Assembly (NCBI GenBank): GCA_033764315.1
Contig: JANRJA010000081.1
Span: forward strand, 1 to 24,379
Reading direction: 5' to 3'
Source of the DNA: Oculatellaceae cyanobacterium bins.114
GTDB taxonomy: Bacteria > Cyanobacteriota > Cyanobacteriia > Elainellales > Elainellaceae
Length of the DNA stretch: 24,379 nt
Shown here piece after piece: positions 5,720 through 9,278 of the stretch (position 1 is its first letter; every line of letters starts with the position of its first letter). The position numbers and the translations under genes are program-made. The notes under the pieces were generated by a model. The model did no database searches. It was not told where the DNA came from and saw only the letters and a list, made by a program, of their open reading frames with translations.

Positions 5720-7192
5720 TTATAGCGTACCAAATCCTTTCTTCTTTTTCTCTTTTTTCTTTTTCTTGGGTGGTGCTCCCCCTCCGGGATAGCCCCGCCA
5801 ACCCGCAGGCGTACCCCGTGGATTCCCCATCGCGGGTGCCCCACCTCCACCAAACATGCCGCCCATTCCTGGCATTCCTGGCATTCCAGGAAATTGCCCC
5901 TGACTCATTTGTTGCATTAGCGATCGCATCTTTTGAAAATCGCTAACAAGTTTGCTGACATCTTCTAACCCATAGCCTGCCCCTTTAGCAATGCGACGAC
6001 GGCGACTGGGAGACCCTGACAACAGATCAGGATTTTTTCGCTCCTCAACCGTCATTGAGTTAATCATGGCCTCAGCTCGTTTGAGTTGAGTTTCGCCCTG
6101 CTCTAACTGCTCACTTGACAGCTTATTCATACCAGGGATCATTTTAATGATTCCACCGAGCGACCCCATCGACTTCAACATCCGGGTTTGCTTCAAAAAG
6201 TCAGTGAAGTCAAACTTGGCAGACATGATCTTTTCTTGCAGCTTCTCCGCCTCTGCAAAATCTACCTCTTCCTGAGCTTTTTCTACCAGCGTCAGCACAT
6301 CCCCCATTCCCAAAATGCGAGATGCCATGCGATCAGGGTAGAAAGGTTGTAAGGCTTCTACCTTTTCGCCTACCCCAACAAACTTAATGGGTTGTCCTGA
6401 GATGCGCCGCACCGAAAGGGCTGCCCCACCCCGAGTATCGCCATCCATCTTGGTAAGAATGGCTCCGGTAATGCCGATTTGATCATGAAAGGTGCGTGTC
6501 AAGTTAGCTGCTTCTTGACCCGTCATCGCGTCCACCACTAGCAGCACCTCATGGGGCTGCACGGTTGCTTTGATCTGAGCTAGCTCAGCCATCATGTCTT
6601 GGTCGATTTGCAAGCGTCCGGCGGTGTCAATAATGACGGTGTCCACACCATCGGCTTTAGCTTTGGCGACCCCCTGGCGGGCAATCTCCACGGGGTCTGC
6701 ATCCGATCCCATTTCAAATACAGGGACATTAATCTGTTTGCCCAGGGTGATCAATTGGTCGATGGCAGCAGGACGGTAGACATCGGTTGCCACCAGCAAG
6801 GTTTCTCGGTTTTGCTTGCGCAGATGGAGTGCAAGTTTAGCGGTGGCAGTGGTTTTCCCAGTTCCTTGAAGCCCTGCCATTAAGACGATTGTCGGGGCTT
6901 CTGTTGCTTCTGCCAGGGGAACGTTGGTTTCCCCCATGACGCCAACTAACTCGTCATGGACGATTTTAATAAATTGCTGATCGGGACGAACACCTGAAAT
7001 TACCTCAGCCCCTTCAGCTTTGGTTTGCACATCAGCGACAAAATCTTTAACGACCTGGAGATTAACATCTGCCTCTAATAGGGCACGACGAACCTCGCGC
7101 AATGCCTCTTGAATATTGGCTTCCGAGATCTTGTCCTGTCCTCGCAGCTTTTTCCAAGCAGATTCTAGGCGATCGGATAGGGCTTCAAACAT
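5720..7192 (-). CDS. ffh: Signal recognition particle protein Ffh
   Basis: MFEALSDRL start, GLQGTGKTT, DTAGRLQ, TKMDGDTRGGAALS and Met-rich M domain. Start set to the ATG at 7192. Confidence 0.97.
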   Translation of the reverse strand: MFEALSDRLESAWKKLRGQDKISEANIQEALREVRRALLEADVNLQVVKDFVADVQTKAEGAEVISGVRPDQQFIKIVHDELVGVMGETNVPLAEATEAPTIVLMAGLQGTGKTTATAKLALHLRKQNRETLLVATDVYRPAAIDQLITLGKQINVPVFEMGSDADPVEIARQGVAKAKADGVDTVIIDTAGRLQIDQDMMAELAQIKATVQPHEVLLVVDAMTGQEAANLTRTFHDQIGITGAILTKMDGDTRGGAALSVRRISGQPIKFVGVGEKVEALQPFYPDRMASRILGMGDVLTLVEKAQEEVDFAEAEKLQEKIMSAKFDFTDFLKQTRMLKSMGSLGGIIKMIPGMNKLSSEQLEQGETQLKRAEAMINSMTVEERKNPDLLSGSPSRRRRIAKGAGYGLEDVSKLVSDFQKMRSLMQQMSQGQFPGMPGMPGMGGMFGGGGAPAMGNPRGTPAGWRGYPGGGAPPKKKKKEKKKKGFGTL

Positions 7193-7439
7193 GAGAATAG
7201 GCTCTGATGCAGTAAATATCGTTATCAATCCATTCTAGAAGTTAAGGTCAGGAGTTTTACGAAGTCATAGGCGATCGCCCCCAAATCTATCGATGAAAAC
7301 TCTGCTTACCTCAATTTCCGATATTTCCCGCAGGTTAGATTTTGCAGCCTGTTATAAGATGAAACGGGTTATTTATGGTCGCATCGTCTATGGGTCATGG
7401 CTGAGGATGTCTCTTGACCACTGCCCAATCGTGCCCAAT

Positions 7440-7494
7440 AAAAAAAGGGAGAGCCATTTGATTAACTCTCCCTACCATCAGGGTGCATCTACTT
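7440..7494 (-). ncRNA. Candidate ~55-nt small RNA, NsiR1-like
   Basis: Minus strand AGTAGATGCACCCTGATGGT, then AGGGAGAG-TTAATCAAATGG-CTCTCCCT and a T run (intrinsic terminator). A -10-like CATAAT (7500-7505) lies 6-7 nt upstream. The 5' motif matches my recollection of the NsiR1 conserved 5' end. Confidence 0.6.
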
Positions 7495-7499
7495 ATCAC

Positions 7500-7536
7500 A
7501 TTATGCCATTAGGGGTATGGGGGGTGTCACCCCCTA
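7500..7536 (-). promoter_or_regulatory. Promoter of candidate sRNA with GGGGG-N5-CCCCC palindrome (HetR-box-like)
   Basis: TGGCATAAT extended -10-like element; GGGGG-TGTCA-CCCCC at 7520-7534, centred about 34 nt upstream of the inferred start. Confidence 0.45.
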
Positions 7537-7551
7537 AATGAAAGTTTTTGC

Positions 7552-7584
7552 AAAAAAAACCAGGGTTTTTGTAAATTTCCCTGG
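7552..7584 (-). terminator. Probable intrinsic terminator of gatB
   Basis: Minus strand CCAGGG-N13-CCCTGG followed by T8, about 20 nt after the gatB stop. Confidence 0.55.
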
Positions 7585-7605
7585 AATTTCTGGTTTTGGC
7601 ATGGA

Positions 7606-9093
7606 TTAACCATTCAATTTTTGGATGAGAAGCTGGTTGGTCAGCTTTGGATCAGCCCGTCCACCAGTCTGCTTCATCACTTGACCGACAAAAAATCCCA
7701 AAAGTTTCGTCTTGCCGCCCCGATATTTTTCTAATTCATCTGGGAAAGCAGCTATAACAGCATCGATCGCCGTTTCGATCGCCCCCGTGTCTGAAATTTG
7801 AATTAGCCCTTTGCTTTCAATCAATGATTTTGCAGAACCCCCTTGCACAAGCAACTCCGGCAAGATATCTTTGCCGATCTTGTTGCTGATGGTGTTGTCT
7901 TCAATTAAATTAATCATTTCGGCCAGGGTTTCAGCCGTCAGAGCAATATCGTGGATTCCTTTCTTCTCATTATTGAGATAGCCGCTAATGTCACCCATGA
8001 TCCAGTTAGCTGCTTGTTTGGCGGGTGCTCCAGCCGTGACCGTTGCCTCAAAATATTGAGCGATCGCCCGATCGTCAGTGAGCACGCGTGCATCATAGGC
8101 AGATAGCCCCAGATCATTTTCATAGCGATGGCGTTTTTGGGCAGGCAACTCAGGCAGTTGCGATCGCCATTCTTCTAGTTGCTCCGTCGGAACTTCGATG
8201 GGCGTCAAGTCTGGTTCTGGAAAATAGCGGTAATCGCTAGAACCTTCCTTGACCCGCATACTAATCGTACGTTGCGACCCTTCTTCCCACAGACGAGTTT
8301 CTTGAACGATGCGTTCACCCGCCTCGATCGCTTGAACTTGCCGCTCAATTTCGTAATTAATAGCTCGTTCGATCGCGTTGAACGAGTTCATGTTCTTGAT
8401 CTCAACCTTGGTGCCAAATTTCTCAGTTCCAACTGGGCGAACTGAAATATTGACGTCACAGCGGAGTGAGCCTTCTTGCATGTTGCCATCACTCACACCG
8501 AGATAGAGCAAAATTCGCCGCAACTCTTGAGCATATTCAGCCGCTTCTCGACCCGATCGCATATCTGGTTCAGAGACGATTTCGACCAGAGGCACCCCAG
8601 TGCGATTGAAGTCTACTAAAGAATAGGTCGAACCCGACAACCGTTCACTACCCGCATGAACCAGCTTGCCCGCGTCTTCTTCCATGTGCAGACGGGTAAT
8701 GCCAATGCGTTTGCGCGTAGACGTGCCGCTGCCCTTATCAACCAACTCAATTTCTAGCCAACCATGTTCAGCGATCGGCAGGTCAAACTGCGAGATTTGA
8801 TAATTTTTGGGCAGGTCAGGATAAAAGTATTGCTTGCGGTCAAATTTACTATAAGCCGCGATCTCACAATTAAGTGCCAATCCAGCTTTTACAGCATATT
8901 CCAACACTTTCTGATTGAGCACAGGCAACACACCGGGCATTCCCATACAAACCGGACAGACATTTTCATTGGGCGGCGTGTTGAACGACGTAGAACAGTT
9001 GCAAAAGACTTTGGTGTCCGTTTTAAGTTGACAGTGGGTTTCTAACCCAATAACGGCTTCGTACTGAGTTTTGACAGGTGCGGCGGTAGTCAT
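7606..9093 (-). CDS. gatB: Asp-tRNA(Asn)/Glu-tRNA(Gln) amidotransferase subunit B
   Basis: [68 protein letters not shown] and C-terminal Yqey-like GFFVGQVMK. Start set to the ATG at 9093. Confidence 0.97.
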
Positions 9094-9170
9094 AGAACCA
9101 GAAGCATCGACAGTTGGCTCTATTGTAGCGGCTAACGGTTCAGGGGAGTGGATAAGGGAAGGGAAGGGGG

Positions 9171-9219
<49 letters not shown>

Positions 9220-9278
9220 AGGGCGGAGTAGATGAGTGAGAGTCGCATTTATCCATCTACCCATCTACCCACCGCCTC
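9220..9278. repeat. Imperfect inverted repeat containing a duplicated CCATCTAC octamer
   Basis: GGCGG-AGTAGATG...CCATCTAC-CCATCTAC-CCACCGCC downstream of the FKBP stop; may act as a 3' hairpin. Confidence 0.5.

Follow-up and report, generated by a model that had tools for sequence, protein, structure and literature searches.

A conserved NsiR1-related small RNA unit with a HetR-type palindrome in its predicted promoter, between gatB and ffh of an Oculatellaceae cyanobacterium

Locus and anatomy of the unit

Contig JANRJA010000081.1 of Oculatellaceae cyanobacterium bins.114 (GenBank assembly GCA_033764315.1) was analyzed as one window of 24,379 nt. Between gatB and ffh, the minus strand of the window carries a compact unit composed of a palindrome of the HetR type, an extended −10 element, an unpaired 5′ segment, and an intrinsic terminator, which together predict a small RNA (sRNA) gene related to NsiR1. 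The initial annotation had described a −10 box, an unpaired 5′ segment of about 20 nt, a stem, and a U tail at this place, as a single copy with a different terminator between the two genes. Every part was found in the sequence, and NCBIfam confirmed both genes (Table 1). We call the promoter type class H. The class-H unit lies between two housekeeping genes here, and it is conserved in most hetR-carrying cyanobacteria. We consider it likely that the unit is a real sRNA gene of the NsiR1 family under direct HetR control.

Table 1. Features of the locus and canonical NsiR1 copies of the same genome (promoter positions count G7492 as +1)
Feature	Position	Strand	Basis or detail
Predicted class-H NsiR1 paralogue transcript, ~53–54 nt	7440..7493	−	Rfam NsiR1 match, −10 spacing, terminator
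HetR-type palindrome GGGGGTGACACCCCC	7520..7534	−	−42..−28, center −35
Extended −10 element	7500..7508	−	TG 7508–7507, one base, CATAAT 7505–7500
Single-stranded 5′ segment (seed) GTAGATGCACCCTGATGGT, 19 nt	7474..7492	−	Unpaired in centroid fold
Terminator hairpin	7446..7473	−	Arms 7473–7463 and 7456–7446, 11 pairs, 6-nt loop 7462–7457
T-run (U-run in RNA) after hairpin	7445–7440	−	Terminator scan
gatB	7606..9264	−	NCBIfam NF004012, 721.1 bits
ffh (longest open reading frame)	5720..7228	−	NCBIfam TIGR00959, 611.6 bits, aligned from residue 14
Weak terminator-like hairpin and T8 after gatB stop codon	7552..7584	−	Fold
Canonical NsiR1 copy	C100:46066–46117	+	Rfam
Canonical NsiR1 copy	C116:10902–10951	−	Rfam
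Canonical NsiR1 copy	C119:25007–25057	+	Rfam
Canonical NsiR1 copy	C214:11925–11975	+	Rfam

The 5′ end of the RNA was set from the −10 spacing and the mapped start of NsiR1 in Nostoc PCC 7120, and the 3′ end from the terminator. Transcription would start at about 7492/7493. G7492 was taken as +1 because it lies 7 nt past the −10 box and because the mapped PCC 7120 transcript is listed from GTAGATG (Table S3, PMC4734099). The 5′ part at 7493–7474 reads AGTAGATGCACCCTGATGGT. A 59-nt RNA folded with −17.5 kcal/mol, and the centroid structure left its 5′ part unpaired. Taken by itself, the fold was modestly unusual (z = −2.47), with 4 of 200 shuffles folding as well. A strict two-hexamer sigma-70 scan called no promoter at this locus. 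The separate gatB terminator of the initial annotation exists as a hairpin followed by T8 (CCAGGG 7584–7579 and CCCTGG 7565–7560, 13-nt loop), but it is weak (−12.2 kcal/mol, z = −1.27) and was not called by the simple terminator scan. The true start of ffh may lie a little downstream of the longest-frame start.

Kinship to NsiR1 and two promoter classes

NsiR1 of Nostoc PCC 7120 is encoded in tandem copies upstream of hetF, and its expression is HetR-dependent and heterocyst-specific. Its targets there are the hetF 5′ untranslated region (UTR), in antisense, and the start region of the hetP-like gene alr3234. The resemblance noticed in the initial annotation held. The NsiR1 model RF02399, run against 391 nt, aligned at its positions 1–60 with 7439–7494 (32.9 bits, E = 7.7e-5). 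The NsiR1 5′ motif GUAGAUGCACCCUGAU was matched exactly, and a hairpin and U-tail follow, as in NsiR1. The score fell short of the NsiR1 gathering threshold of 39 bits, and no Rfam family was found at its gathering score in the whole window.

Four canonical NsiR1 genes (49.4–55.5 bits) were found in the genome (251 contigs, 6.64 Mb). The exact 15-mer GTAGATGCACCCTGA has five genomic occurrences, which are these four copies and the window copy. The canonical copies lie one per contig, beside cobM, hemE/histidine kinase, an RTX-like gene, and a Pit-type transporter. The suggestion of a seed used outside the hetF array did not survive in that form: the four copies are single and stand in unrelated contexts, and no NsiR1 tandem array was found in this assembly, whose 251 contigs may collapse one and in which hetF itself was not searched for. 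Two intergenic stretches of the genome, C166:20666–20680 and C218:6426–6440, are alike over ~60 nt and end in CTAGATGCACCC, which nearly repeats the seed.

About 36 nt before GTAG, one canonical copy carries TCCGGA and three carry TCCTGA. The DIF1 −35 box (TCCGGA) is given as the defining feature of NsiR1 promoters (PMC9045159); it is now assigned to sigma-HetZ, and position −32 is reported to be replaceable (PMC13342950). No TCC[G/T]GA was found at −34 to −40 of the window copy. The initial annotation had the −10 box right, but overlooked that a HetR-type palindrome covers the −35 region in place of the canonical DIF1 box. The window element and NsiR1 have the first 16 nt, the size (~55–60 nt), and the open 5′ segment followed by an intrinsic terminator in common. 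Both would belong to a HetR-dependent circuit, and sibling copies of the two occur in the same genome. In contrast to NsiR1, the window element has the palindrome with an extended −10, a distinct terminator that is conserved in its own right, GGU after GAUG (U or A in the canonical copies), a score under the Rfam threshold, and a single copy at a conserved gatB/ffh site instead of a tandem array linked to hetF. We read it as a paralogue of NsiR1 that represents a distinct, ancient promoter class excluded by the Rfam threshold.

The stand-alone unit is not peculiar to this genome; promoter and RNA are conserved together across many families. A BLAST search with window positions 7000–7900 against 40 relatives yielded a block of ~97 nt (7536–7440) in 33 of them, other families included, with 76–96% identity (39 copies, 37 loci). 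According to hand counts, it adjoins gatB and/or ffh in 17 of the 33 relatives (both genes in 7, only gatB in 8, only ffh in 2). In the remaining 16, it is apart from both genes and the upstream block is still kept. The aligned block consists of (G)AGGGGT-N3-ACCCCTCA, ~11 nt, TG-n-CATAAT, 7 nt, GTAGATGCACCCTGATG, a GGAGAG...CTCTCC terminator, and a T-run. The 17-mer is identical in 38 of the 39 copies found by BLAST. This is the fair figure for its invariance, since the loci of a second, exact scan for GTAGATGCACCCTGATG (one genome per species; at least 121 stretches, 80 of them listed) were chosen by the 17-mer and are invariant by construction.

Among 143 motif copies from the relatives and the matches listed, 104 have GGG-N5-CCC at −45 to −30 (class H), 17 have TCC[G/T]GA at −40 to −34 (class D), and 22 have neither. 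The palindrome was found in none of the 17 class-D copies. Many of the 22 boxless copies have a class-H-like RNA with a decayed box, such as those in named Nostoc, Tolypothrix, and Spirirestis records. The Rfam threshold separates class D from class H cleanly: all eight class-D copies tested scored 39.5–58.4 bits, and all 19 class-H or degenerate-box copies tested 26.5–37.9 bits. Threshold-based annotation would therefore leave class H unlabelled. Among the matches listed, class H occurs in the non-heterocystous genera Microcoleus, Lyngbya, Symploca, Phormidesmis, Leptolyngbya, Spirulina, Limnothrix, and Nodosilinea, and in the heterocystous genera Scytonema (seven tandem copies), Rivularia, Westiellopsis, Anabaena, and Dolichospermum. 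Class-H tandem arrays of 3–7 units, spaced 119–143 nt and each with its own palindrome, were seen in records of Scytonema sp. HK-05 (L126), Symplocastrum (L122), Symploca (L119), and Rivularia (L146). Amplification in tandem is thus not confined to the DIF1 class.

The terminator helix shows covariation, and this comparison, more than the single fold, supports a real RNA. Over 98 distinct class-H transcripts, it was paired in 86.1% of cells, compared with at most 60.9% for slid controls, and 9 of its 11 pairs had changes on both sides. The covariation score was 0.320; slid controls gave at most 0.160, and none of 500 shuffles reached the score. RNAalifold predicted the same helix.

The HetR-type palindrome and possible control by HetR

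The strong 17-bp HetR site of hetP is GAGGGGTCTAACCCCTC, with GGG-N5-CCC as a structural requirement (PMC4192349). The window palindrome contains this core between arms that resemble the hetP site, and several orthologues carry arms identical to the published ones. The geometry of the homologous promoters is rigid. Of 101 unique promoters, 86 have the first base of the core at −40; the consensus of these 86 is tagGGGGTg.cACCCCtCA, and TG stands at −16/−15 in 75 of them. The commonest −10 hexamers among the homologues are CATAAT (27), TATACT (16), and CATACT (15), and an A-rich tract is located at −55 to −49. The palindrome center varies; therefore, a −35 hexamer is not conserved. The unit resembles the HetR-regulon promoters of hetP and hetZ in its hetP-type inverted repeat with the GGG-N5-CCC core and in its co-occurrence with hetR. 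It differs from them in its product, a predicted sRNA, and in the center of the putative HetR site, at −35 here and at about −45 in the Nodularia hetZ promoter.

The unit tracks hetR. Among the 40 relatives, hetR (PF03574) was found in 32, and all of these have the element; it was also found in one of the eight hetR-negative relatives (G035). At the class level, an even sample of 200 genomes together with this one was scanned for the seed-box pattern (seed, 26–32 nt, GGG-N5-CCC). The pattern was present in 91 of the 201 genomes, and its backwards control in none. hetR was found in 112 genomes, 89 with the pattern and 23 without it; where hetR was not found, the pattern was present in 2 genomes and absent from 87. 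These counts describe a pattern and do not constitute a test, because related genomes are not independent. In the same sample, hetZ (NF037963) was found in 109 of 201 genomes, and canonical NsiR1 at or above the Rfam threshold in 89 of 150. Two genomes without a hetR match, G035 (99% complete) and G031 (93%), nevertheless gave Rfam matches to NsiR1. In addition, G035 carries the class-H element and a hetZ gene scoring above the cut-off; in G031, only a HetZ-family match below the cut-off was seen.

The genome of the window has two hetR matches (267.3 and 223.1 bits). The paralogues lie at C209:90377–90823 (minus strand) and C217:16163–16609 (plus strand), and several relatives hold 2–3. The HetP family NF037966 gave no match in this genome, from which we infer that the organism probably forms no heterocysts. 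HetP was found in a single family, f32 (4 of 4 genomes), whereas the window-type element occurs in many families besides f32.

Direct HetR control appears most likely because a HetR-type palindrome stands where the canonical genes carry the DIF1 box. We propose that the stand-alone gene would yield a trans-acting sRNA from a TG-extended −10 promoter with the HetR-type box at −35, and that HetR bound at the palindrome would control its transcription. The intrinsic terminator would end the transcript, and the invariant open 5′ segment would presumably pair with mRNA leaders. As to the sign, we lean slightly toward activation, the effect seen with every well-characterized high-affinity palindrome of the hetP type (PhetP and PhetZ in E. 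coli; PMC13342950).

Several observations weigh against this proposal. Transcription and HetR binding are both deduced from the nucleotide sequence; a search for sequencing runs that contain it listed only DNA metagenomes with small shares, and no RNA run. The box center at −35 is ~10 bp nearer to the start than the HetR site of the activated Nodularia hetZ promoter, which lies at about −45 (PMC3610870). Repression is as plausible as activation insofar as the conserved extended −10 could fire without an activator. The seed-box pattern occurs without a hetR match in G035 and in G160 (62% complete). The 23 hetR-positive genomes lack the exact pattern, although at least one of them (G033) has a copy with one mismatch, and the named Nostoc records carry a degenerate box. 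Apart from these points, the hetZ upstream regions of 24 genomes were examined from −170 to −40 and no HetR box was found, so the promoter geometries could not be compared within these genomes.

The opposite sign is the alternative that survives best. The box would then be an operator in a strong constitutive promoter, and HetR would shut the sRNA off. We regard this as possible, if rather doubtful. The box overlaps the −35 region (−42 to −28), and with the frequent TG and the A-rich tract the promoter may fire unaided. The site of the activated Nodularia promoter is about one helical turn further upstream. HetR is described as activating or inhibiting different genes (PMC11298460), and one promoter was derepressed in a hetR mutant (PMC4192349). 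These points are countered by the activating behavior of the tested hetP-type palindromes and by the lack of a conserved −35 hexamer inside the box.

The palindrome might instead be an RNA hairpin in a transcript of ~100 nt or in the gatB 3′ UTR, the sRNA being a processed or read-through product. The length of the conserved block, ~97 nt and not 55 nt, fits such an RNA. So does the finding that gatB immediately precedes the element in 15 of 33 relatives, and so do the G-run and C-run arms with a variable center. However, TG-n-NATAAT is conserved 7 nt upstream of the position of the PCC 7120 NsiR1 start, the class-D copies have the RNA without the upstream block, and nearly half of the relatives keep the block away from gatB and ffh. 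Moreover, the arms match the published HetR site, track hetR, and show no compensatory changes. This explanation is improbable. The chances are poorer still for an ordinary, heterocyst-specific NsiR1 gene driven by DIF1 and sigma-HetZ that has diverged below the Rfam threshold, despite a 5′ 16-nt segment, size, and layout equal to those of the canonical copies. All four canonical siblings have the TCCGGA/TCCTGA box that the window copy lacks. The upstream region is not decayed but conserved along with the RNA across families, it holds a palindrome absent from every class-D copy, and the terminator is of its own conserved type, GGAGAG...CTCTCC. That the block encodes a small protein, either in the overlapping plus-strand 82-aa frame (7293–7541) or on the minus strand, is barely credible: of 40 copies, 29 have an antisense frame that runs through the block, but in 11 it is closed and the sense frame is open in only 14, close relatives differ by 1-nt loop indels, conservation ends at the block edges well inside the frame, and the substitutions preserve the helix.

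Other HetR-core-like sites of the genome were also inspected. Most of the 60 strict sites belong to a dispersed repeat family with at least two sub-types and ~45 sites, in which GGGGT-N3-ACCCC lies inside a longer G/C-rich palindromic unit (for example, C14:33336, C36:13110, C41:61188, and C175:61609). The repeat may be an element like a miniature inverted-repeat transposable element (MITE) that confuses genome-wide counts of HetR sites. Non-repeat palindromes with full hetP-type arms are located at C97:64954 (ATGAGGGGTCTAACCCCTCAT), C175:44953, and C122:23338. Those on C97 and C175 are followed by a −10-like hexamer 11–15 nt later, a geometry as in the window. The frames near these three palindromes encode small unknown proteins and a caspase-like protein (NF047832, below cut-off). 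The strong palindromes elsewhere than the window had as neighbors a caspase-like frame, a SigF-like sigma factor, and small unknown frames, and neither hetP nor hetZ.

The hetZ leader as candidate target and the HetR circuit

The best candidate target of the predicted sRNA is the hetZ leader, and we hold the assignment of hetZ as its target to be tentative. In this genome, hetZ lies at C65:4231–5373 on the minus strand (NF037963, 669.6 bits). Its leader carries ACCAUCAGGG at −27 to −18 from the GTG start, the exact complement of the sRNA bases CCCUGAUGGU. The predicted duplex reaches −23.5 kcal/mol with 10 bp + 6 bp over −27 to −4. This ranks 10th of 3611 regions upstream of open reading frames (ORFs) of at least 200 aa, which gave a mean of −11.24 (standard deviation 3.24) and a first percentile of −19.7. 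The bases specific to class H after GAUG, GGU here, lengthen the match to the leader.

The match recurs in other genomes. By eye, the hetZ-leader consensus CCAUCAGGGGAGAUCUGCC approximates the reverse complement of the seed, CCAUCAGGGUGCAUCUAC. Among 35 hetZ leaders, the exact CCATCAGGG was found in 16 and CC[A/G]TC[A/G]GGG in 21, the A-to-G variants standing opposite U of the sRNA. The mean best duplex of the 35 leaders was −19.03 kcal/mol, compared with −12.49 ± 1.10 for 400 shuffled seeds, none of which did as well. For 70 pairs of an sRNA and a leader from the same genome, the mean was −19.28 kcal/mol. In G183, CAUCAGGG overlies the ribosome-binding region of a hetP-like gene, with a predicted pairing of −19.1 kcal/mol. 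A second conserved motif, resembling GTGTGTTAGC, was seen ~50–60 nt before GTG in most hetZ leaders outside f32, such as L292 on C65 of this genome. It may mark a promoter or a transcription start, or act as an RNA element.

The case for hetZ is tempered by the following results. In a swap test against non-cognate sRNAs, the cognate pair was better in 11 of 19 families, with a mean difference of −0.58 kcal/mol that was not significant (Wilcoxon p = 0.18). With a strict pattern, only 4 of 70 leaders showed the two half-sites in the right order. The pairing is weak in f32, f22, and f29 (about −14 kcal/mol), and in f32 the corresponding region lies inside coding sequence. The shuffle test counts related sequences because the hetZ leaders are homologous. 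In addition, nine other upstream regions of this genome score as well as the hetZ leader.

Other candidates from the genome-wide search were rejected. The best complement, on C212 (−34.8 kcal/mol), lies opposite a minus-strand ORF and was discarded because the mRNA of this ORF carries the sRNA-like sense strand. The ORF (247 aa) holds a 17/19 sense copy of the sRNA 5′ segment at C212:12647–12677, perhaps a chance match (about 0.07 expected) or a relic. A YkuD L,D-transpeptidase gene (P0002) has a 14/15 complementary site 37 nt upstream that is poorly conserved; the upstream regions of its homologues in 29 relatives reached −20.8 kcal/mol at best, and the one from the same genus −15.2. A 71-aa ORF of no family (P0001) has a 14/15 site 43 nt upstream, which was kept only in the same-genus genome (−24.8), seven other homologues scoring −10 to −17 kcal/mol. 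The upstream regions of both hetR genes were unremarkable (−18.9 kcal/mol at best). AAA_35+FHA and STAS candidates were further entries of the target lists, which are ORF-based and hence noisy.

A 2015 review confines NsiR1 to heterocyst formers (PMC6596454), and a supplementary table from 2016 marks NsiR1 homologues in several non-heterocystous strains (PMC4734099). In the available text of Table S3 of the latter, the seed occurs in one entry, which is canonical NsiR1. Limnospira indica PCC 8005, a non-heterocystous, hetR-bearing cyanobacterium, likewise has an sRNA noted for its resemblance to NsiR1, the 57-nt RNA162, which was measured by RNA-seq; unlike here, the available text presents no promoter analysis (PMC8400943). 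The Limnospira copy L175, which may or may not be RNA162, is of class D (TCCGGA at −38, 39.5 bits). Neither the 15-mer nor its complement was found in the literature text searched, hetZ is not mentioned in PMC9045159 and PMC11797042, and the papers in it that mention both NsiR1 and hetZ have neither term in title or abstract. The HetR-box class, its pan-hetR distribution, the gatB/ffh synteny, and the link to hetZ were undescribed in this literature, and key papers beyond it might cover them.

HetR, HetZ, and PatX are considered a module older than heterocysts, and what this module controls in filamentous cyanobacteria that form no heterocysts is still an open question (PMC7761841, PMC4192349). 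Recent work gives hetZ the place of central sigma factor in the circuit (PMC13342950). In this setting, class H might be the ancestral direct RNA output of HetR, older than heterocysts and retained by nearly all hetR-bearing cyanobacteria, with a seed that pairs with the hetZ leader, and the NsiR1 array a later offshoot driven by sigma-HetZ. We offer this scenario as a speculative one. It would add a feed-forward branch running from HetR through the sRNA to hetZ. If it is true, HetR would not only induce hetZ but also, by way of the sRNA, gate hetZ translation, and the class-D copies driven by sigma-HetZ, with 16 seed bases in common, would exert feedback on hetZ. An sRNA gene with a rigid HetR-type box that tracks hetR would provide a simple read-out of HetR activity outside the heterocyst model, and the class-H sRNA may represent a post-transcriptional link to hetZ.

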